DNA from: Stegostoma tigrinum
Lineage: Eukaryota
DNA length: 64,000 nucleotides
Reading direction: 5' to 3'
Assembly (NCBI RefSeq): GCF_030684315.1
Contig: NC_081400.1
Location: 8,437,464-8,501,463 of the forward strand
Part shown: positions 2,610-64,000 of the stretch, one piece after another
Layout of the letters: every line of letters starts with the position of its first letter
Position numbering within the stretch: the first letter of the stretch is position 1
Made by a program: the position numbers and the translations under genes
The notes under the pieces: model-generated
Databases searched by the model: none
Seen by the model: the letters and a program-made list of their open reading frames with translations, nothing else
What the model was told of the DNA's origin: nothing

Positions 2610-5110
2610 CACGGAGCAGGAAAGCTTGACGTTTTGGGACAGGACCCTGCTTCAGAAAAAGCTTTCCTGCTCATCTGATACTGCTTGGCCTGCCGTGTTC
2701 ATCCAGCCTCACACTGCGTTATCTCAGATTCTCCAGCATCAGCAGTTCCTACTATCCTAGTAGTCTGGTGTGAACTTTCTGAAAGTGTGGTGCAGAATTT
2801 TGTGTCTCGAAGACTGAAAAGTAATTCAGTGCAAAATTACAAGTTCTTCATTCGATTTGCACTGAGTCTTGCAGAAATACTGCAACAGGCCTGAGACACA
2901 AATCTTGAAGTAGAAACACGGAGGGCTATTGATTTGAGTGGCACTTGGAAGCTAAGGATTTTTTTTTATTTTGGAAAGAGCAAAAGTGTTCGACAAAGTG
3001 TTCGTCTAGTCGTTTTTGTCTTCACTCCAGTGTACAGGAGGCCATGTTGTGAGCAGCAAATGAGATGGAGGCAAATTGTTGCTTCAACTGAAAGATGTGC
3101 CTGGGCCGTTGAACGATGAGGAGGCAGACGGCAAACTGATACGTTTTGCACCATCGGCATGGGAAGTTTCACCATTGTTTGGGAGTGGAGCTGGTGTCAG
3201 AGAGGAACAGTTTCTGCGAATGTTGTTGATGGATGTAAGATGAAATATGGGCCTGAGGCAATATCCTGCTGCAGGTGGTGGAAATGGTAACATGTGATCC
3301 TTTGGATACGGAGATAGGTAGGGAGAAATAGAGGACTAAGGGACCGTATCTTGGCCGTGATTGGATTGGAGAAGAGTAAGGGAGATGTGCAGGGAATGGA
3401 TCAGAGATATCTGAGGCGTGTCTCGACGAATGTGACGAGGGTTCTACAGTTGAAGAAAATAGTTAAAATTTTTGAGGTTCACCTTTTATAAGATGGTTTC
3501 ATCAGAACAGATGTGCCAGAGATGACAATTCTGGGAAAACGGAATGGTTGTCCTGACCAGTACCGTGGTATCAGGGTGTGTACTAAAGGACGGGACTCAG
3601 TGGGTCTGTAATGGATGACAGTGGCCATTTTATCACCAGATATACAAATGAAGATGTCAAGAAAGGGACCAGTTGAAAGTAAGACAGGGGTAGAAATTGG
3701 AATCAAAATTTACGTTGTTTTTTTTTCCAATTCTGCATGAAGGATGAAAACAACACTGACGATGTCATTGATACACCACAGGAAGAGTTGTTGGTTGTGT
3801 CCTGAGTAAGACTGGATTAAGAAGTGTTCCATGTAACCCAAAAAGAAACATGCATATCTGGTGCTCATGTGCAAGTCTTTTACCTGAAGAAATGAGACGA
3901 GTTAAAGGAGAAGTTGTCCAAAGTGAGGACAACCACGTCAGTAGAAAGAGAGGACAAGGTGACCATCACGTTGTCGTGATTGGATTAGATAGGGGTAAGG
4001 ACAGTTGTGCAGGGAATGGATCAGAGATATCTGAGGCCTGTTTCGACGAATGTAATGAGGAATCCTCAACTGGCCTGGTAGAAGAGCATGGTGGTGCAAG
4101 GCAGCATACAACTCAAGGAAGAAGCGGAAACCATTCAACCTTGATGGAAATGTAGGTGGAATGCAATTCCTTTGTGAAGATGAGGTATCTGATAGTCGCA
4201 AACTGGAAATTTTGAGACAGACGTATTGGCTCAGATGATTTGCAGATGTAGGTCAGAATAGGCTGGATTAAAAAAAGAAATGAGGTAAGGTAGGACGAAA
4301 TAAGTTCAGTAGGGTAGGAACAGGCTGAAACATTGGGTTTTCCAAGGCAGTCGTGTTTGTGAACTTCTGGTAGAAAGTAGAAGGACCATGAGATGGGCAG
4401 CTCTGAGGCAGTGATACTCAGCTGAGATATAGTTACTGTAGGCGGCCTGAGCGCTGGTGCTCAGTCTCAGCAAGGTAATAGTCAGTTTTCCAGAGAACAA
4501 CACCACTCTTGTCAACTGGCTTGATTACAGAGTCAGAGTTGGATCTAAGAGCACAAAAAAATGCTGACAATAGAGGAAGATCGTTGAAACTGGTAACAGG
4601 ACCCGGGAAATATCACGAGTCAAGTGTAGGTCAGGTCAGGATGGCATGGTGGTTAGCACTGCTTTGGAGCAGCACCAGTGACCTGGGTTCAATTCCACTT
4701 TCGGGCGAGTGACTTTGTGGAGTTTTCATATTCTTCACATGCCTGCGTGGGTCTTCTTTGGATACTTCTGTTACCTCCCACAGTCCAAAGATTGTTACTT
4801 AATGCGGATTGGCTGTTGGAGTTGCTGAGTTACAGCGACATGTTGGGGAATGGGGTCAGGGTGTGATTCTATTTGCAGGGACTGTCTGGATTCAAAGGGC
4901 TGAATGGTGAGATTCCACACTGTATGATTGTATGAAGAAATCGGCGATCATAGGAAGAGGTCCTTTTGGTGGGAGAGTGTTGGAGGTGGGTGAAGTATTC
5001 TGTTGGACGGGCAGAGTAGTAGCCCTATCAAAAGAGTGATGAAGGTGACAAAACAAAAGTTCAATGTCATGTCAAACCCAACATTCAGAGAGTTGGGGGT
5101 GTGAAGGGAT
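2610..5110 (-). mobile_element. Highly decayed Penelope-like element (pLTR remnants plus RT/GIY-YIG relic)
   Basis: pLTR remnants near 2610-2755 and patchy nucleotide similarity to the better-preserved element at 32560-34630. No intact ORF. Confidence 0.6.
4640..4935 (+). mobile_element. HE1/V-SINE-like SINE (degenerate)
   Basis: ggcatggtggttagcactgc...gacctgggttcaattcc head and V-SINE-like core. The matching copy at about 48815-49100 shows it predates the duplication. Confidence 0.75.
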
Positions 5111-5881
5111 AAAGGAACTGCCTGCTGGGATGTTCAGTGAGGGGTTAAGGCAGGAGATTATCGTGAGGGCTGTGGAAATGCTGCCAGCAGGTGAAGGAAC
5201 ACAGGAAAAGGAGCAGGCATTCAGCATGTCTCGCCTATTTTGCCATTCATTGAGATCATAGCTGATCTGTGGCCTGGCGTAATTTACCTGGCTTTGGCAC
5301 ATATCTCAGAATACTTTGATGAGCAAGAAGTTGTGCATCTCAAATTTCATATTAACAACTTTACCAACCATTTTTGAAAGAGAGTTCAAACAGCTGACAG
5401 GTTTTGTGTGCAGAATTGATTTCGAACATCCCTCCTAAACGGTGTGGCCCTATTTTGTAGACAGTGCATCCTAGCCAATCAGTGGAGAGAAATATATTTT
5501 GATTTGCCCTGTCTTTTCCTGTTCATATCGTGGAGACGTCGATCAGATCTTCACTTATTTTTTCTGAATTCGTGGCAAAACAGATCTAATTTGTATAATC
5601 GCTACGTATATCAACAAATAGCATGGAAAATAAACCAGGCATTAGATGTTGTCAGAGAGATGATTGTTTAAGAACAGTTCAAAAATTCACTGCCGGAAGT
5701 AATGAGAAGTCACGTGGAAGAACAGAGAGTTAGTGCTGCAAGATTGGCAGCTGAAATGGTCAATGATTGTGAGCTAGATCATGAATCAAAGTTTGTCTTA
5801 CCACATCAATTTCAATCCGTGAGGGACAGAAAGTTGGGAAAAGAGAAATTCTCAGGTGGCAGGGGAAAAGGTGATAATAGA

Positions 5882-20074: not shown

Positions 20075-20891
20075 TACACACTACAGCACAGAGGAACTAC
20101 GAAGAGCAGAAGAAAATCACCTATACAGCATATTCAAACAGAACGTGTACCCAATGAACACAGTCCCACGATTTCTCAGCAACAAACCCAAACAAACAGA
20201 CAAAACGGGCCCAGAAACCATAACCACTCTTCCCTACATGAAAGACATTTCGGAAATGACTGCCAGACTACTCAGATTTCTTGGCATCAGGGTAGCCCAC
20301 AAACACACCAACACTCTAAAACAGCAGCTAATGAACTTAAAAGACCCTTTACAGACAACAAGCAAAATGAATGCCATCTACAAAATACCTTGCAAGAACT
20401 GCAACAAACACTACATTGGACAAACAGGCAGAAAGCTAGCCACCACGATGCATGAACATCAATTAGCCACAAAGCGACATGATCCACTGTCACTAGTATC
20501 CTTACATACAGATGAGGAAGGACACCACTTTGATTGGGACAACACATGCATCCTAGGACAAGCCAAACAGAGACACGCACGCGAATTCCCAGAAGCATGG
20601 CATTCCAACCGGAACTCCATCAACAAACACATTGATTTGGAGCCAATCTACCATCCACTGAGAAAAGGAACAGGAAATGACATCACCAACGCAGGAAATG
20701 ACATCACCACCCCAAGGAAACCTGAACAGATCAATAGAAAGCGGGACGTAACACCAGCGCTTCATCGGAGGCTCACTGATGATGTTACCTAGAATGGTGA
20801 CGAAAACGTCTGAAAACTAACCTTCCAGCTCAGCGAGCAAACTCACATCCAAAACTCAACCTGAGCTACAAATCTTCTCCAAACTCGCTAA
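20075..20891 (+). mobile_element. Penelope-like element, second (Poseidon-like) family: 3' GIY-YIG endonuclease and pLTR
   Basis: ORF 20028-20792 contains AIYKIPCKNCNKHYIGQTGRKLATTMHEH and HHFDWDNTCIL. Confidence 0.9.
20773..20813 (+). ncRNA. Type I hammerhead ribozyme motif of the Poseidon-like pLTR
   Basis: tca-CTGATGA-t-gttacc-tagaat-ggtgac-GAAA-ac-GTC-tga: stem I tca/tga, stem II gttacc/ggtgac. It has one extra A relative to the copy at 57648-57662. Confidence 0.75.
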
Positions 20892-41052: not shown

Positions 41053-42912
41053 CTGTGATTAAATATAAACAAATTAGGTATCCAATACTTACAAGCAACT
41101 CAAGAGGCCCATCAACGTCAATCCAAGCTGCTCATTGTGCAATCCACAAAACCCCCGCAGTAAATAATGGAACCCTTAAAGTTAGACGCAAGACCAATAA
41201 AGTAGCACAAAGACAGAATGAGACACTCAGAGGCAAAAGAAGGTAGAGACACATCTGAAACAAAACGTTCGTCATATCGAACAACATAAATTTGGAAACA
41301 TCATCCTGTTGGGCACAGAATGAGATTATTGAGTCCTCCAAATATTGCTACACCGAACCAAGTTGAACTAATTACTTGGAACCCTCTCGGCATACGTCTA
41401 TCAATCCGAATCGAATCCGGAATTCAGCCTGTCTCCTAGAATAAAAGTATTTCAAGTTTCACAGTGTTTTTGCGCCTGTCATTCGGATTTTCTCTTGACA
41501 TGACTTGCAGCGGACATGTATTTGTATCCACTGAACATTGTTGGAAGATCCATTACCACGATTTCCTGGTACATGCTCAATGTCCTTTCAGCATTTAACT
41601 GTATAAGTAGGTGTTTAGAGAAACTGTGTTAAATATTATCGCCTCCAGTTTCATAAACCGTTACTGAAGTAGCCCTCTCCAAATTTATAATATTTCACCA
41701 CATGCTTTGAAACAGTCAATCTTTCTCCAATCCCCAGTCTTCGCTTTCAGCGAAAGCCAAAAGATCATAAGACATAGGAGTGGAATTAATACTGTTCGGT
41801 CATTAGTCCACTCGATGCTCAGTTCATCATGGGAATTTCAGCTCCACTTGTTTGATAGCTTATTTTTTAATAGATTGAGGAGGCTTTTTACAAGTTGGAA
41901 AAATCACTTCCGAAACAGACAGAATAAAGGAGCGATTTGACCCCACGTGATCAAGAAAAGCCAAAAAGAATGAAGCAAGCTCAATCAGACTGATAAGGGT
42001 GTCAAAGACAGAAGGGAAGCATGGACATTACCATTCCTAACACTAAATTATGGATAATATGTGAAAAATGTTGATATAATAAAACTTGGAACACGATGAG
42101 TAGATATGCTATTGTTGTAACAAATAGATAAACCCGTATTACATATAAAACTCGTTTTAAAAATTCTATGATGAGAACAGAACAGAATGCCTGAACCAAT
42201 GAAAAAAAAATTGGAAAAACAGTTGCCGTTGTTGTTCTGAAAGAGGAAGTCGGTCAATGAAACCAGTAGATTGAATCGACTTCAACAAGATCTTTCCACT
42301 TCTGAGGCAACTCCGATCTCGAAGAGATCAATGTAACTGCGCCACTCTAATGAAAGCGAATCTGAAGTATGATGAAGCGGAGGAGGTTGGGTGAGTTGGA
42401 AACTCGGGCGTCGATAGAAAGCATAAAGCTTTCTTAAATATGCACGAGAGAAAGGGATGCGAAAGCAGGTGCGGCTAATAAAAGTACTATCAAAATAAAT
42501 ATTTGGGAGGAAACGAGAGAAACTAGAGCTCTAGTTCAAATTTATTTTAGCATTAATCACAGTATGTCTTTTCCAACGTGAATGCTATGATAAATAGAAA
42601 AATATTCATAGGCATTAATAAGAAATGTAGCGAACTGGGAAAAAAGTTATTATTTCCCATTTTAATCAACAAAACCTCAGACTCGTTCATTATACCCTGC
42701 TTTATGTGCAAATTGCCTGCTTCAATAAATTATGATAAGAATTGAGAAAGCTAAGGAGTGTAAGGCTGAGTTATGTGAAAGAAGTAACTATCTGGACAAT
42801 CAGACGTCGATGCAAAGAATGGGAAGACTTTGAAGATGAAAGGTCATAAAGTCGCAATAAGCTCTAATGTTGGCACTAAACGTAATCATTAATTGTTGTT
42901 GCCAATACTTAC

Positions 42913-43215
42913 CTTTCTGATATGAGATACTTTCACTGTTACGGATCGCAGTTGAGCTGATTTGTACTGAGCAAGTACAGACAGCGCCATATTTCCAAGC
43001 TTCTGCTGGGACTCTGATGTGACTCCTGATACTGTAGACACCAGTGGAGTCCATTGCCGCAGAACCTGTCCAACCCTCGGCATCCCAGGTGGATATATTC
43101 CAGTCGATGGGAAAGTTATTAGCGATCACGTTGCTCACTAAACACATCAAAGTGAGAGTTTCCATGGAAACCATTTCTTGCAGCGGTGGAGATAAAAGAT
43201 TTACGTTGGGAGGGC
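42913..43215 (-). CDS. VJ-C1 receptor exon 3: C1-set Ig constant domain
   Basis: Acceptor tttccaatctcttcag|GC and donor AAAG|gtaagt. 303 nt, phase 1-1. PPNVNLLSPP, TLMCLV, W, YSIRSHIRV, W, CTCSV match the antigen-receptor C1 pattern. Confidence 0.93.
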
Positions 43216-43302
43216 CTGAAGAGATTGGAAAGTAACATGAAATTATTGTTGAACATTGCTTTGTATCAATAGTGAAATCCGTCAAACTGTCTTTACTCTT
43301 AC

Positions 43303-43641
43303 CTGTTATGAGCAAGTGTGAACCATTTCCGAATATGAAGGGGTTAGGGTACGATTTCCTACCAGCGCAGAAATATACACCGGAATCACTTCTCTGGACG
43401 TTGTGAATCACAAGAGTATAATCAGTCGATTTGTCATTAACTTCTCCAGAAAATCTTCCAGTTGGAGTGGAGTAATTGCTCACAATGTAAACGAAATGCA
43501 GATTTCGTCGGACCATCTGTTTGTACCAGTGAACACCTCCCCATGCATACCAGCTCGTGTGGCATTTCATCCTCGCAGTGCTTCCAATGGAGACACTCTG
43601 AAGTGCCGGACTTTGCGGGAGCGTTGTCTGAGGGACAGTAA
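43303..43641 (-). CDS. VJ-C1 receptor exon 2: V-set Ig domain with germline-fused J motif
   Basis: Acceptor ctctgttttcaaag|TT and donor ACAG|gtaaga. 339 nt, phase 1-1. Motifs MKC, VHWYKQ, GRFSG, YTLVI, DSGVYFC, FGNGSHLLIT. No intron or RSS between V and J. Confidence 0.95.
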
Positions 43642-44226
43642 CTTTGAAAACAGAGCGTGTCACAAACTTCAGCTGAAAACTTAAGTTTTGGTTCACGCAA
43701 ATTTAGTGCCTTAAGTGAAACAAATATGATCATTTCGAGAATGAGCACCGATTCTAATTCGAAATTAGTATGTTAAATGCGCTAAAATACGTCAAAACCA
43801 CGAGGCAGGAAGAAAGAAAGAACGAAAGAAAGAAAGATAGAACGAAAGAAGGAAAAAAGAGCAATACCATATATCCATTCGTCAAATGCGGTCAATTATT
43901 GCAATTTAAGAAAACGAGCACTGACTTTTGCTCAAAGAAATATTCAGCAATAGCAATTCCATACGATCACAAAAGCTGTATTCGTCATTTTGGTGAAAAG
44001 ATAAGCATCGACCCAAAACAGTAAAATAACTCCTCAACTTGTTTCCATGTGCAATACACGAAGTATGAAAACGTTTATCTAATTTCCAGATCTTTGATCA
44101 TGTAATTGTTCACCGCTTAAAGAACGCTTTTCTTTGAAAGGAATACTTCATTTACTGCTTCACCTGGCCGGATTTCCCATTGGTCTTACTCCAAATATAC
44201 CTTACATTAGAAGCAAAATCTCGAAC

Positions 44227-56789: not shown

Positions 56790-57500
56790 TGAAATGTGAG
56801 GCTGGATGAACACAGCAGGCCCAGCAGCATCTCAGGAGCACAAAAGCTGACGTTTCGGGCCTAGACCCTTCATCAGAGAGGGGGATGGGGTGAGGGTTCT
56901 GGAATAAATAGGGAGAGAGGGGGAGGCGGACTGAAGATGGAGAGAAAAGAAGGTAGGTGGAGAGGAGCGTATAGGTGGGGAGGTAGGGAGGGGATAGGTC
57001 AGTCCAGGGAGGACGGACAGGTCAAGGAGGTGGGATGAGGTTAGTAGGTAGGAAATGGATTTGCGGCTTGGGGTGGGAGGAAGGGATGGGTGAGAGGAAG
57101 AACAGGTTAAGGAGGCAGAGACAGGTTGGACTAGTTTTGGGATGCAGTGGGTGGAGGGGAAGAGCTGGGCTGGTTGTGTGGTGCCGTGGGGGGAGGGGAC
57201 GAACTGGGCTGGTTTCTGGATGCAGTGGGGGAAGGGGAGATTTTGAAGCTGCTGAAGTCCGCATTGATACCATTGGGCTGCAGGGTTCCCAAGCGGAATA
57301 TGAGTTGCTGTTCCTGCAACCTTCGGGTGGCATCATTGTGGCACTGCAGGAGGCCCATGATGGACATGTCATCTAAAGAATGGGAGGGGGAGTGGAAATG
57401 GTTCGCGACTGGGAGGTGCAGTTGTTTATTGCGAACTGAGCAGAGGTGTTCTGCAAAGCGGTCGCAAAGCCTCCGCTTGGTTTCCCCAATGTAGAGGAAG
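56790..57500 (-). mobile_element. Penelope-like element 3' fragment (GIY-YIG C-terminus plus pLTR)
   Basis: ORF 57131-57367 (MSIMGLLQCHNDATRRLQEQQLIFRLGTLQP) is nearly identical to the end of ORF 33839-34309. Confidence 0.9.
56847..56878 (-). ncRNA. Minimal type I hammerhead ribozyme motif (consensus-intact)
   Basis: Minus strand ctCTGATGAagggtctaggcccGAAAcGTCag. Confidence 0.8.
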
Positions 57501-57568: not shown

Positions 57569-57662
57569 TAGCGAGTTTTGAGAAGATTTGTAGCTCAGTT
57601 TGAGGTTCTGGATGTGAGTTTACTGGCTGAGGTGGAAGGTTCGTTTTCAGACGTTTCGTCAC
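57569..57662 (-). mobile_element. Poseidon-like pLTR 3' part, cut inside its hammerhead (Tx1 target site)
   Basis: Reverse complement aligns with 20797-20891. It begins gtgacGAAAcGTCtg exactly at the Tx1 poly(A) junction. Confidence 0.9.
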
Positions 57663-57935
57663 TTTTTTTTATTTGAAAAAATATACTTTATTCATAAGCT
57701 GTACAAAAAATAAAACATTTATTCACCTACCCAGTCATGCAAGCCATTCCGGGTTACCCAGGGGTACGTACACCAACTAAAGGGAAAAAAACAAACAAAC
57801 AAATAAAACCAAATAAAATACCCCGGCAGTTGTCACCCCGCACAGTCCCTGTTGGCCCCCTGACCAGTTGGGGAAGGCGCCAGCTGGGCCCAGTTACCAG
57901 ATAGGGCCTTTTTTTTCTATTCTGGATGCGGGGTT

Positions 57936-60900
57936 TCATACGATGGTCTTTCCCCACCGCGCCTTGGCGGCGGCTGCCCCAAGCTTTAGTGCGTCCCTCA
58001 GCACGTAGTCCTGGACCTTGGAGTGCGCCAGTCTGCAACATTCGGTCGGGGTCAGTTCTTTCAGCTGGCAGACCAGCAAGTTGTGGGCAGACCAAAGAGC
58101 GTCTTTCACCGCATTGATGGTCCTCCAGGCGCAGTTGATGTTGGTATCGGTGTGCGTCCCGGGAAACAGCCGGTAGAGCATGGAGTCCCGTGTCATGGAG
58201 CTGCTCGGGACGAACCTCAACAAATACCACTGCATCCCCCTCCAGACATCCTGCGCATAGGCACACTCCAGAAGGAGGTGATCAACAGTCTCCTTCCCCC
58301 CGCAGCCACCTCGAGGGCAGCGTGCGGTGGTGCAGAGATTCCGGGTATGCAGAATGGATCTCACTGGCAGAGCCCCCTCTCACCGCGGGCCAAGCAATGT
58401 CCTTGTACTTGTTTGAAAGTTCTGGCGATGAGGCATTCTGCCAAACGACTTTGGCAGTCTGCGTGTGGAACCACACGACGGGATCCACCCTCTCCTTTTC
58501 CCGAAGGGTCTCGAGAATACTACGTGCTGACCACTGCCTGACGGCCTTGTGGTCAAAGGTGTTTCCTTTCAAAAATTTCTCCACGAAGGACAGGTGGTAC
58601 GGAACGGTCCAACTACTCGGAGCGTTCCACGGCAACGATGCCAGGCCCATCCTTCGCAACACCGGGGACAGGTAGAACCTCAGTAAGTAGTGACACTTGG
58701 TGTTTGCGTACTGAGGATCTACGCACAGCTTGATGCAGCCGCACACAAAGGTAGCCATCAGGGCGAGGGTGGCGTTTGGTACACCCTTGCCCCCATTTTC
58801 CAGGTCTTTGTACATGGTGTCCCTGTGGACCCGGTCCATCCTCGACTCCCAAATGAAGTGGAAGATGGTCCGGGTGACTGCAGCGGCGCATGCCCAGGGA
58901 ATAGGCCAGGCCTGCGCCACATACAACAGTACCGAAAGCCCCTCGCACCTGACAACCAGGTTCTTACCCGTGATGGAGAGGGACCGGAGCATCCACCTGC
59001 CCAGCTTCTGCTTCAATTTGGTGATACGCTCCTCCCAAGTCTTAGTGCACGCCCCAGCTCCACCAAACCAAACACCCAGCACCTTCAGGTAGTCTGTCCT
59101 GATGGTGAAGGGGATGAAGAAGCGGTCGTCCCAGTTCCCGAAGAACATGACCTCGCTCTTACCCCTATTGACTTTGGCACCCGAGGCCAGTTCAAACTGG
59201 CCGCAGATGTCCAATAGTCTACTCGCCGACCAACGATTGGTGCAGAAGACGGTGACATCGTCCATGTGCAGGGAGGTCTTGACCTGAAGGCCTCCGCTGC
59301 CTGGGATAGTCACGCCCTTCAGGCTCACATCCTTCCTGATGCATGCAGCGAAGGGCTTCACACAGCATACGAACAAGGCAGGAGAGAGCGGGCAGCCCTG
59401 CCTGACTCCAGATCTAACAGGAAAACTGTCCGATTCCCACCTGTTGATCGAGACTGCGCTAATGATGTTGGCGTAGAGCAGCCGGATCCAATTACGGATG
59501 CCCTCCCCGAACCCCAATTTGGAGAGGACATCCCTCGTGAGCATGAGAGACCCTGTCGAAGGCCTTCTCCTGGTCAAGGCTGACGAGGCAGGTGTTCACC
59601 TGCCTGTCCTGCACGTAGGCGATTGTATCCCTGACGAGCGCGAAGCTCTCAGCGATCTTCCTGCTCGTCACAGCACAGGTTTGGTCAGGGTGAAACACCG
59701 ACTCCAGGACAGACCTGACCCGGTTGGCTATGACCTTGGCCAGGATTTTGTCGTCTACGTTCAATAGTGAAATGGGACACCGATTCTTAATTTCTTCCCT
59801 CTCCCCCTTCCTCTTGTAAATGAGGGCGATGATGCCCTTCCTCATGGACTTGTACATTTCCCCTGCCCGAAGCGCACTATCGTACACCTCCAGCAGGTCC
59901 TGGCCAACCAGGCCCCACAGAGCGGAATACAGCTTGATCAGTAAGCCGTCGTTTCCGGGAGTCCTATTCCTCTCCAAGGCCTTGAGGGCTAAGGTCAGCT
60001 CGTCCAGGGATATTGGCCGGTCCAGCCACTCCCTTGTGCCGTCGTCTAAGACCTCCATGATAGACGACAGGAACGACTTGGAGGCCATGCTGTCCATGGG
60101 CTTCATGTCGTACAGTCCAGCATAGAAGGATCTGCTAATCCTCAAAATGTCGGGCCGAGACGACGTCACCGAGCCGTCGTCCTCCTTCAGCCGGCTAAGC
60201 ACAGAGCTCTCTTTGCGCACCTTCTGAAAGAAGAAACGTGAGCACGTCTCGTCCTGCTCCACGGAGCGGACCCTGGACCGGAAGATTATCCTGGAGGTCT
60301 CCGCGGTGAAGAGTGAGGCTTGCCGGCCCCTCACCTCGCGGAGGTCCTCCGTGACATCGACCCCCATCAACTGCAGAAGGAGCAGCTTCTGCACCTTTTT
60401 ACTGGAGTCGCGACAGCTTTCCCCGCCTCTCTCTCACCTTCCGAACACCCTTGAGGACAAAGAACCTCTTAATGTTCTCCTTCACCGTTTCCCACCAGTC
60501 GCCCGGAGACTCAAAGAGGAGTTTTACGGTTCTCCAACTGGCGTACTCCCTCTTAAGCTCCTCGATGTTCTCTAGGGTCAACAGAGTCGTGTTGAGCTTC
60601 CACGTCCCCTTGCCGTCCGGCTGGTCGTCTTGTAAGTGACAGTCGGCCAGCAGGAGGCAGTGGTCAGAGAAGAACACCGGCTCGACGCCGGTGGACCTGA
60701 CCGAGAATGCCCGTGACACAAACAGGAAGTCTATCCTTGAGCGGATAGACCCGTCTGGCCGCGACCAGGTGGACCTCCGCTGCGCTCTGTCTGCAGGGGT
60801 GCTGAAGACGTCGAGCAGCTTGGCGTCCTTCACCGTGCCCATCAGAAATCTGGACATGACGTCCAGTTGACTCCCCCCACCCGCTGTCCCCACGCCGGAT

Positions 60901-61357
60901 CTTCCATCTGCATCAATGATGCAGTTGAAGTCTCCGCCTAGGATGACCGGCCTGGACGTAGCCAGCAGGGATGGAAGCCGCTGCAGGACGGCCAACCGCT
61001 CACTCCGCACCGCTGGGGCGGACACGTTGATCAGCCTCAGGGGAACGTTCCTGTAGGTGACGTCAGCCACTAGGAGGCGCCCCCCCCACCACGTCCTGAA
61101 CTTGAGAGATGGTGAAGTCGCGCCCCCGCAGCAGAATAGCCAGGCCCGAGGAGCGACAGTCGTTACCCACCGACCAGATCGAAGGCCCACCAGGTCCAGG
61201 CGCCGGACCATTTCCCGTAACTGCCGAGGTGCAGTATCCCGCACTCCTGCAGAAACAGGAGGCCTGCCTTGATGGTGGTCAGGTAGGCCAACTTGGATAC
61301 ACATCTTGCGGTGGACTTGACACCGCGCACATTAATGCTCGCAACTCGTACGCCCAT
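57936..61357 (-). pseudogene. Tx1 ORF2 (APE endonuclease, RT, C-terminal zinc knuckle) with several frameshifts
   Basis: Pieces in ORFs 61163-61387, 60399-61304, 59492-60394, 58282-59577 and 57936-58364. Motifs: SINVRG, LQE, GGDFN, RIDF, SDH, LDQEKAFDRV, GVRQGCPLSP, HMDD (expected YMDD), CPRGGCGGKETVDHLLLEC. Confidence 0.92.
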
Positions 61358-61389
61358 TGTGGGCAGTGACCGCAGTACCCTCCCCAAGT

Positions 61390-62793
61390 CAAAGGTCCAG
61401 CCCCTCCATCTGTCCCTTCATGCCCATTGCCCGGGCTATCTGCTGGATGCTCTCCGGGCTCAGGAAACCATCCGTGCTGCCTTCCAGGTGGCATCCCCCC
61501 GTAGGGGTGCGGAGGCAGGAGGGTCTGGCTCTGGGTCAGGCTGGGGACGCGCTGTTTCCTCCTTCCCGCCTGGAAGTTCCGGGGGGCCCTCCAGTGCCCC
61601 AGCGGCGCTTGACTGGGTGTCGGAGGGTGCCTCAGGATTCCTCCCGTCACCTAGAAGCGTGGTGCTGCTTGCCTTCTCCCTCGAGATCTTTAACTTCTGC
61701 TTCAGGCGGGCCCTCTCCGAATCCCCCTCGTCAGAGGAGCTCTTATAGCCCCCCTGTAGCTGCCTCTTTCCACCTGATGGTTGCGGTTCCTGGGCCCGTC
61801 GACGCACCTTCCTCCTTGCTTTCAAGACCGTCGTCCACTCCCCTGGGTCGGCTGTCGCCACCTCCTTCGACTCCAGGTTGTCGGGGGGGAGTGGAGCCTG
61901 CAGGGGCGCTTTGCTGGCCTCGGGCCCATCCTGTGGGGCTGGGCCCTCCTGCACGACCTGGCCCTCCTGCACATTAGTGGGGTCCTTGCTGGGCCCTGGT
62001 GCCTTCCTCTCCTCCGGGGGGGCTCGCCCCGCATTGCCCCTGCCAGCAACCTGGGCGTAGGTGGTCCCCCGCTGCAGGCATGCCCAAAGAGGTGGCCCGC
62101 TTCCCCGCAAAGGTTGCAGCTTTTCTCTTGTGGGCAATCTTTTGCAAGGTGTTCCTCCTCGCTGCAGTTCTTGCAGATGGTGACTTTGCAGTCGGCCGCC
62201 ACGTGGCCTGACCTATCACAGGCATGGCAGACTTTAGGTTGCCCTGCATAGGTCAGGTAGCCCTTGCTCCCGCCAATCGCGAAGCTGGACGGTGGGTGTA
62301 CAATGTTCCTGTCCGCGCCCATCCTCAGCGTCACCTTGACCTGCCTCTTACTGGTCCAGATGCCAAAGGGGTCCATGATGTCAGTTAGGTCCCCTTCCAC
62401 CTTCACGTACCTCCCAAGGAAGGTCACGACATCAACTGCTGGCACATGCGGGTTGTACATGTGTACAGTCACCATACGGCTCCTCTGCTCTGGCGTCACA
62501 AACAACGGGACAGTGGTCAATACAGAGAGTGGGCCCTCACTTCCTTTCTCCTTGAAAACCTCCAGGAAGCGCTCGCAAAGCTTGGCACTCCTGAAGGTCA
62601 TGTCGTAAAAACCTCCTCCTGGGAAATCCTGCAGGCAGTAAATGTCCGCAGCAGTGAACCCACAACAGTCCAACAGGACCCTCTTCATGAAGAAGGTGCG
62701 GTCCACAGGTGCACCTTCATCCACTTTCTTCACGGAAACACGGATGGTGTTCCGGACCCCCTGACCTGGGGCACGAGCACTTGCCGCAGCCAT
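61390..62793 (-). pseudogene. Tx1 ORF1 (gag-like, three CCHC zinc knuckles), frameshifted
   Basis: Starts MAAASARAPG at 62793. Knuckles CHACDRSGHVAADC, CKNCSEEEHLAKDC and CNLCGEAGH. Continues in ORF 61460-62137 (TTYAQV); end approximate. Confidence 0.88.
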
Positions 62794-63007
62794 CGTTGCA
62801 GGTTGGCTGCTCCCCTGAACCAGCGTTAGGCCGAAGCCAGCATTAAGATCCACCGGTTGCAAGGGTGCACAGCCAACCCGACATCCTCCTTTCACCTCCA
62901 ACACAGCACTCTCCTCCTCTCGGTCCACAAGAGAGTGGGTCTTTATTTTGTTCCAGATGTAAGCTGGTTCACCGAGCTTGAAGGTTTGTTCCCAGATGTT
63001 TTGTCAC

Positions 63008-63760
63008 TTTTTTTTATTTGAAAAAATATACTTTATTCGTGAGATGTACAAAAAAAAACATATTTATAGACCTACCCAGTCATGCAAGCCGCTCCGGGTT
63101 ACCCAGGGGGTACGTTCACCAACTAAAGGAAAAAAACAAAACAAAGAAGAAAAAAAACAAAGCAAAGAAAATACCCCGGCAGTCGTCACCCCGCACAGTC
63201 CCCGTTGGCCCCCTGACCAGTTGGGGACGGCGCCAGCTGGGCCCAGTTACCAGATAGGGTTCTTTTTTCCTATTCTGGACGAGGGGTTTCATACCGTGGT
63301 CTTTCCCCACCGCGCCTTGGCGGCGGCTGCCCCAAGCTTTAGCGCATCCCTCAGCACGTAGTCCTGGACCTTGGAGTGCGCCAGTCTGCAACACTCGGTC
63401 AGGGTCAGTTCTTTCAGCTGGCAGACCAGCAAGTTGCGGGCATGCCAAAGAGCGTCTTTCACCGCATTGATGGTCCTCCAGGCGCAGTTGATGTTGGTCG
63501 CGGTGTGCGTCCCGGGAAACAGCCCGTAGAGCACGGAGTCCCGCGTCACGGAGCTGCTCAGGACGAACCTCGACAAATACCACTGCATCCCCCTCCAGAC
63601 CTCGTGCACGTAGGCACACTCCAGAAGGAGGTGATCAACAGTCTCGTCCCCCCCGCCCCCCCCGCAGCCACCTCGAGGGCAGCGTGCGGTGGCGCAGAGA
63701 TTCCGGGCATGCATAAAGGATCTCACTGGCAGAGCCCCTCTCACCGCCAGCCAAGCAATG
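63008..63760 (-). mobile_element. Tx1 copy 2, 5'-truncated, flanked by a perfect 16-bp TSD
   Basis: ORF 63289-63744 matches the ORF2 C-terminus of copy 1. ccagatgttttgtcac occurs at 62992-63007 and 63761-63776. Confidence 0.93.
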
Positions 63761-63776
63761 CCAGATGTTTTGTCAC

Positions 63777-64000
63777 TTTTTTTTTATTTGAAAAAATATA
63801 CTTTATTCATAGAATGTACAAAAAATAAAACATTTATACACCTGCCCGGTCATGCAAGCCATTCCGGGTTACCCAGGGGTACGTACACCAACTAAAGGAA
63901 AAAAAAACAAAACAGAGAAAACAAAACAAAAACACAAAGCAAAGAAACCGCCCCGGCAGTCGTCACCCCGCACAGTCCCAGTTGGCCCCCTGACCCGTTG
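63777..64000 (-). mobile_element. Tx1 copy 3, 3' UTR, continuing beyond the window
   Basis: Same poly(A) junction and 3' UTR as 57663-57870. Confidence 0.9.

Follow-up and report, generated by a model that had tools for sequence, protein, structure and literature searches.

The window, that is, the whole 64,000-nucleotide stretch of DNA that was analysed, contains a tandem array of Tx1-clade LINE copies set in the sequence of another transposon, Penelope (Table 1). Positions are numbered here in element orientation, with +1 as the first G of GTGAC (window position 63007, minus strand); on this scale the cut of the Penelope hammerhead falls after +13. The array consists of a full-length Tx1 copy fronted by a Penelope-derived leader, a 5'-truncated copy and a third copy, also full-length, that extends past the end of the window. 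The sequence-only reading had placed a 16-bp TSD at the 5' end of the first copy. The duplication is real (62992-63007 is identical to 63761-63776), but it belongs to the truncated neighbour, which was inserted into the leader. In the junctions inspected, full-length copies on a Penelope target lack a TSD of their own, and Penelope passes into the leader without a seam. The 5' junction of the third copy with upstream Penelope (locus L249, near G000:C60:8506591) has a broken hammerhead core; at this outermost junction of the array, A9, stem II, G12 and G16.2 are all altered.

Table 1. Features of the Tx1 array and of a comparator Penelope end in the window
Feature	Position	Strand	Basis or remark
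Free Penelope 3' end, uninterrupted; comparator outside the array	20076..20890	+	Hammerhead 20776-20810, long tail
Penelope long tail (+1..+94) at 3' junction, intact half core GAAACGTC	57569..57662	-	Sequence comparison
Tx1-clade LINE body: 5' UTR, ORF1, ORF2, 3' UTR, short poly(A)	57663..62949	-	Domain search
Tx1 leader, 58 nt, Penelope-derived	62950..63007	-	+1 = 63007; front of full-length Tx1 copy
First 16 nt of leader (+1..+16): stem II, 3' half, with remains of the core	62992..63007	-	Sequence; target site of the truncated neighbour
5'-truncated Tx1 copy (body positions 4547-5283), inserted in leader	63008..63760	-	Sequence; locus L249
16-bp TSD copy of 62992-63007, itself target of the next copy	63761..63776	-	Sequence; L249
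Third full-length Tx1 copy, 3' end only, continues past window	63777..64000	-	L249

The hammerhead of the comparator Penelope end has one additional A in GAAA. This end, with its extra A and a shared flank, repeats at G000:C60:8366086, 8413272 and 8458063 (L093, L092 and L091), and the spacing of 45-47 kb points to a probable tandem segmental duplication of the region. The window also contains an open frame of 300 codons that encodes Ig V-set and C1-set domains (42800-43702, minus strand). Another repeat family that has a minimal hammerhead (CTGATGA..GAAACGTC, its stem II being different) occurs at 56847-56876 (minus strand), 16667, 18202 and 19485; among the loci examined, no Tx1 insertion was seen in this family.

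A fixed Tx1 insertion site within stem II of the Penelope hammerhead

The ORF1 of the window copy starts with the ATG at 62793 and encodes two ZCCHC3-type RNA-binding domains and a CCHC knuckle (Pfam). ORF2, which is frameshifted in the window copy, encodes an AP endonuclease, an RT and a C-terminal zinc region, as found by Pfam on natural copies (L300, L288 and the window copy); this gene content in both ORFs is that of the Tx1 clade. The naturally open ORF2 of L300 best matches amphibian and fish proteins (35-48%), one of them named 'transposon TX1 uncharacterized 149 kDa protein' (37%). An open ORF2 of 1,139 codons is present in copies L300, L282 and L231 of the youngest clade, which indicates that the family was active recently. 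With 2,744 exact 3' ends in the 3.2-Gb genome, the family comprises thousands of copies.

The target carries an RT (RVT_1, E 2.6e-10), a C-terminal GIY-YIG match that is weak (E 0.005, under Pfam's cut-off), a minimal hammerhead in the pLTR, tails and inverted copies, as Penelope-like elements do, and its ORF stop falls in stem-loop II of the hammerhead. Exact 5' halves of this hammerhead number 13,609 + 934 in the genome. An Rfam scan of the window returned no hammerhead family match, because minimal motifs score below threshold.

The insertion site is fixed: 29/30 Tx1 3' junctions lie at +1 (plus or minus 1) of the Penelope hammerhead. Among 38 copies anchored by their 3' ends, 25 are full length behind upstream Penelope, 2 are full length behind another Tx1, 1 is truncated off target with a TSD, and the remaining 10 are truncated and have a Penelope tail but neither the upstream half nor a Tx1 TSD. 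A TSD, of 15-16 bp, is visible at truncated insertions only (window, L222, L241 and L062), from which we infer that the second nick is placed at +16. Site-specific insertion is thereby accompanied by a TSD and a 3' poly(A). Target immunity conferred by the leader is not evident, tandem copies making up 4/30, 2/33 and 5/35 of the 5' ends; this share is about that of Penelope sites carrying Tx1.

The Penelope-derived leader

The likeness first noticed at the front of the full-length copy, an ungapped 38/55 match between 62953-63007 and 57608-57662, was reproduced and is far above chance. Its extension beyond the 16-mer also holds, with 25/39 matches over the 39 nt past 62992-63007; when these 39 nt were slid along the window in both orientations, no unrelated position matched at more than 22/39, and the other Penelope end in the window (20797-20852) matched at 27/39, with a BLAST E of 2e-5 for a longer query. 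The likeness continues to 62950, three bases past the segment originally noted, giving 58 nt. The 16-mer ends 3 nt beyond the GUC triplet, as had been described (+13 versus +16).

The leader is a fixed part of the Tx1 5' end. In 30 copies chosen by their downstream UTR alone, it is whole in 29 and mostly present in 1, which answers for other full-length copies the question raised by the single copy in the window. Its identity has a median of 53/58 to other Tx1 leaders and 43/58 to free Penelope tails, and this higher resemblance to other leaders rules out that it is a long TSD of the individual insertion. The leader at 62950..63007 duplicates, in frozen form, target sequence that lies downstream of the first nick. 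Since its length is about that of a short Penelope tail (tail ends +53 to +60), it arose either by joining of a Penelope end to the Tx1 UTR or as one long duplication.

At leader positions +37..+39 (window 62969-62971), a C>T change gives a stop in the Penelope frame that begins in stem II. TGA is present here in 68/72 Tx1 leaders versus 11/85 free Penelope ends; the position is a CpG site, and the window copy reads CGG. With this stop, the Penelope start would open only a short upstream ORF ahead of Tx1 ORF1.

State of the hammerhead and inheritance across the junction

The sequence-only reading held that, at the outermost junction, the upstream Penelope half and the TSD would rebuild a hammerhead, by which Penelope read-through RNA would be cut almost exactly at the Tx1 5' end. 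The upstream half does lie in register at outermost junctions. Cleavage by the borrowed hammerhead fares poorly: the core is intact in 4/72 5' junctions versus 47/85 free Penelope ends, the latter fraction being inflated because the free samples were mostly picked by an exact pattern including CTGATGA. The 72 junctions were chosen regardless of the hammerhead; part of the set omits exact matches sampled earlier, and sample L311-L350 omits copies sampled earlier. Loci L091-L120, which had been picked for upstream likeness, were excluded from the core-state, CpG-decay and tail-marker comparisons. The two least biased subsets have an intact core in 1/26 and 2/28 junctions, and the genome lists give ~0.53 x 0.18 = 10%, counted by eye among the matches listed. 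Altogether, the hammerhead core is broken in about 90-95% of junctions, and most copies appear to lack an active self-cleaving ribozyme at or near the 5' junction. Core substitutions of such kind would inactivate a hammerhead. The half core GAAACGTC is intact in 24/56 3' flanks versus 6/72 5' junctions (p 6e-6).

In the window leader, the core changes are G12>A at 63002 and G16.2>A at 62997, with the notional cut after 62995. The changes GAAA>AAAA and GTC>ATC, which had been taken for local decay, are instead alleles common to many copies (29/72 and 50/72 junctions). Alleles at -18, +6, +7, +9 and +11 are inherited with Tx1, and all of them lie 5' of the cut site, which argues that the template RNAs were uncut at +13. 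This inheritance speaks directly against the idea that a rebuilt hammerhead, now or in a few donors, cuts the read-through RNA at +13 and sets the Tx1 5' end. The topology of the junction does rebuild the motif, the nick lies close to the cut site, and about 5-10% of junctions keep an intact core (4/72 of those sampled, and 18 of the first 100 CTGATGA junctions listed, by eye). Additionally, AA>GG at +16/+17 is near fixed (70/72 and 69/72) and strengthens the predicted stem I (-0.4 to -2.4 kcal/mol), a change that may be left over from an earlier stage at which cleavage took place. However, AUC replaces GUC in all 9 members shown of the youngest clade, the one with open-ORF2 copies, and minimal Penelope hammerheads are weak, with inactive monomers (PMC4209133). 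We regard ribozyme borrowing as very unlikely.

Between -30 and +15, all variants enriched in Tx1 at p<0.01 hit the core positions A6, G12, A13, A15.1 and G16.2, and at both core CpGs the sole enriched change is the core-breaking G>A. This restriction to the core suggests selection against the hammerhead. Against selection stand the non-core variants at -31/-32, which are enriched too, and the finding that three of the core variants form one haplotype. Against it, too, A6U and the downstream core breaks look independent in the genome lists, the downstream core being intact in 18/100 junctions with A6U and 18/100 without it (among the junctions listed, by eye), but this test of epistasis is mixed: in the sampled loci, which include loci picked by likeness to the window copy, the figures are 2/63 with A6U versus 9/67 without. 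Selected loss of the ribozyme and relaxed, tolerated loss are about evenly balanced.

Across 79 composites, variation in the leader is linked to that in the Tx1 body (Mantel r 0.45, p 0.0005), so the leader travels in the RNA; neither Penelope at -61..-330 nor the 3' tail is linked to the body (r -0.06 to 0.08). The body tree is hardly linked to the alleles at -1..-60 (r 0.08, p 0.07), and A6U (-18) is dispersed across it, so patchy conversion and recombination are needed. A6U is present at 693/1,483 exact Tx1 junctions versus at most 241/13,060 other sites; since 29/30 sampled A6U sites are Tx1 junctions, its true background is nearer 0.2% (range about 0.2-2%). From +16 onward, Tx1-type bases are near fixed, and from about -40 to +15 the sequence is a patchwork of Tx1-linked and target alleles. 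The graded junction series TGATT / GGATT / GAATT-AAATT, together with target-type +16/+17 in 4/132 junctions, fits a moving switch point. Target sequence apparently carried in the RNA, uniform 5' junctions and inherited junction variants are thus found side by side.

CpG decay follows the same region. In a comparison of 132 Tx1-linked with 106 free Penelope copies, Tx1-linked copies show excess decay at +10 (0.90 versus 0.27), +5, -31 and -34 (p<2e-4), weakly at -39, and none at -55, -187, -217, -302 and -322. That the excess stops by -55 argues that Tx1-linked Penelopes are not merely older.

The mosaic, star-like body tree with its scattered leader alleles would also be expected if ectopic gene conversion among Tx1 copies had spread variants a few dozen bases into the 5' flank after insertion, the RNA itself starting in the leader. 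Such conversion would be expected to reach the 3' flank and the 13,000 free Penelope ends to an equal degree; the 3' flanks, however, resemble free Penelope, and A6U is nearly absent from free copies. We consider this explanation improbable.

We hold it unlikely, too, that hitch-hiking on Penelope is the main route, with the Penelope RT priming in the tail and copying the whole Penelope::Tx1 composite, so that the leader and the broken core are passengers. Composite tails do end where Penelope tails usually end, at either of two positions, and duplications of 10-13 bp flank whole head-to-head structures. Double-Tx1 structures in head-to-head arrangement are frequent (by eye, 12 pairs in the first 100 of the 3' ends listed). 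The two arms are mutually closest relatives in 6/25 double structures (p 8e-5), and the 10/38 truncated copies that have no upstream half would also fit. In 19/25 double structures, however, the arms are unrelated; the tail and far-upstream Penelope are not inherited together with the Tx1 body, and the excess CpG decay is gone by -55. Flanking duplications are present at 0/8 single-arm truncations versus ~5/13 single-arm full structures (by eye), a contrast in favour of deletion. At most, copying of the composite by Penelope is probably a side route, and head-to-head structures could also come from arm-to-arm conversion and central deletion.

Several head-to-head pairs of Tx1-bearing arms at most ~11 kb long lie on G000:C1 (for example, L319, L327, L329, L350, L292/L293 and L297/L298); one arm ends at the short and the other at the long Penelope tail, with 10-13-bp flanking duplications. 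At the 3' junction of L336, a Tx1-type leader runs directly into a Penelope long tail, and L141 is an A6U hammerhead on an otherwise free Penelope; the two are possible 'solo' leader-tail recombinants or aborted insertions.

A candidate insertion route and its relation to known systems

Taken together, the junctions make it probable that Tx1, with its Penelope-derived leader, is transcribed from about 40 nt upstream into an RNA uncut by the hammerhead, and that annealing of cDNA to the target yields the seamless junctions. Specifically, transcription would begin in a promoter of the Penelope end near -40, a position read from the CpG gradients only, 20-30 nt past ATAAATA. The uncut RNA would carry target-like sequence. 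A bottom-strand nick at +1 would prime on the poly(A) (TPRT), the top strand would be nicked at +16, and the cDNA would anneal to the target upstream of the +16 nick, forming a heteroduplex with a variable switch point and patchy repair. The leader would be a long duplication of the downstream target that was made once and then frozen into the RNA; it would recreate the target and so give rise to tandem arrays such as that of the window. The likely role of the shared sequence is precise joining of the front end, not cutting of the RNA.

We take ATAAATA at about -67 to be TATA-like, and the doubled GGAAATGACATCACC unit at -126..-85 is presumably a promoter motif; as the TATA-like region also codes for Penelope protein, no proof can be drawn from its conservation. 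Upstream Penelope is shorter than 100 nt in 3/132 Tx1-linked versus 25/106 free copies, and the upstream unit is single rather than doubled in 13/119 versus 34/72. This bias fits a preference for promoter-competent ends; it could also reflect protein recognition or longer conversion. No tail markers were found by which target choice could be told apart from conversion in the case of the doubled upstream unit. At 100+ nt, the bias exceeds the proposed RNA start, and the insertion route set out above would need target selection as an added step. The 10/38 truncated copies that have no upstream half would be accounted for by later deletion only.

A fuller reading, in which all parts hold jointly, is possible yet doubtful: Tx1 would be a LINE hyperparasite of Penelope that lands at the ORF stop/start of promoter-competent Penelope ends, where promoter and target homology replace 5' machinery of its own; it would have been selected repeatedly to kill a hammerhead that severs its transcript, and would sometimes ride the Penelope reverse transcriptase as a composite.

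If the insertion route is true, the co-transcript and heteroduplex 5' joining of R2 extends to an AP-endonuclease LINE that targets another transposon. The ~1,500 exact junctions would be a natural read-out of how donor RNA overwrites its target, a poorly understood step of LINE insertion. They also offer in vivo genetic evidence on the role of the Penelope hammerhead, as sequence crosses its site uncut and the core is retained in free Penelope and lost where a passenger transcript traverses it. A LINE with mostly full-length copies and precise 5' ends (27/38 of the 3'-anchored copies) is of relevance to gene insertion.

We found no report of Tx1 in Penelope hammerheads; Repbase, subscription journals and supplements lay outside the search, and a prior description there is possible. 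Target-specific members of the Tx1 clade include Tx1L (in Tx1D), Tx1-Mar (in Mariner-N4_AMi), Keno, Kibi and Koshi, and flank-driven transcription has been proposed for SINEU, in the available part of PMC4494074. Like these, the element described here is a two-ORF AP-endonuclease LINE with a fixed target, which in the clade sometimes lies inside a transposon. The targets named in that part of the source include no Penelope and no hammerhead, a leader derived from the target is not mentioned there, and the word 'penelope' has 0 occurrences in PMC4494074.

The target resembles the Penelope/Poseidon elements of PMC4209133 and PMC11167929 in its RT, its weak GIY-YIG match, the minimal type I hammerhead situated where the ORF ends/starts, its tails of two lengths and its inverted arrangements. 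Penelope/Poseidon minimal hammerheads have low activity and act as dimers (PMC4209133). In anole Penelope, unprocessed RNA is the main insertion substrate and the hammerhead needs protein; the tails result from internal starts of RT, extension takes place on both strands, and the ORF starts in stem II (PMC11167929). Unlike in those studies, Penelope is here the host of an insertion, and its hammerhead is known by sequence.

The parallel with R2 co-transcripts drawn at the outset is apt. R2 is described with a heteroduplex model and inherited junction variants, and earwig R2 has a fixed 22-bp duplication of the downstream target with 3 substitutions (PMC3774820). Tx1 would be like R2, and especially earwig R2, in the co-transcript model, in uniform 5' junctions made by cDNA/target annealing and in junction variants propagated by RNA, although its leader is a duplication of 58 nt. 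R2 uses a restriction-like endonuclease on rDNA, whereas the Tx1 studied here uses an AP endonuclease on another transposon; and R2 encodes its own HDV-like ribozyme that trims the RNA, whereas the ribozyme at the Tx1 junction belongs to the target and is broken. On comparison of its copies, Tx1 appears to resemble R2 with target-bearing RNA rather than a ribozyme-processed element.
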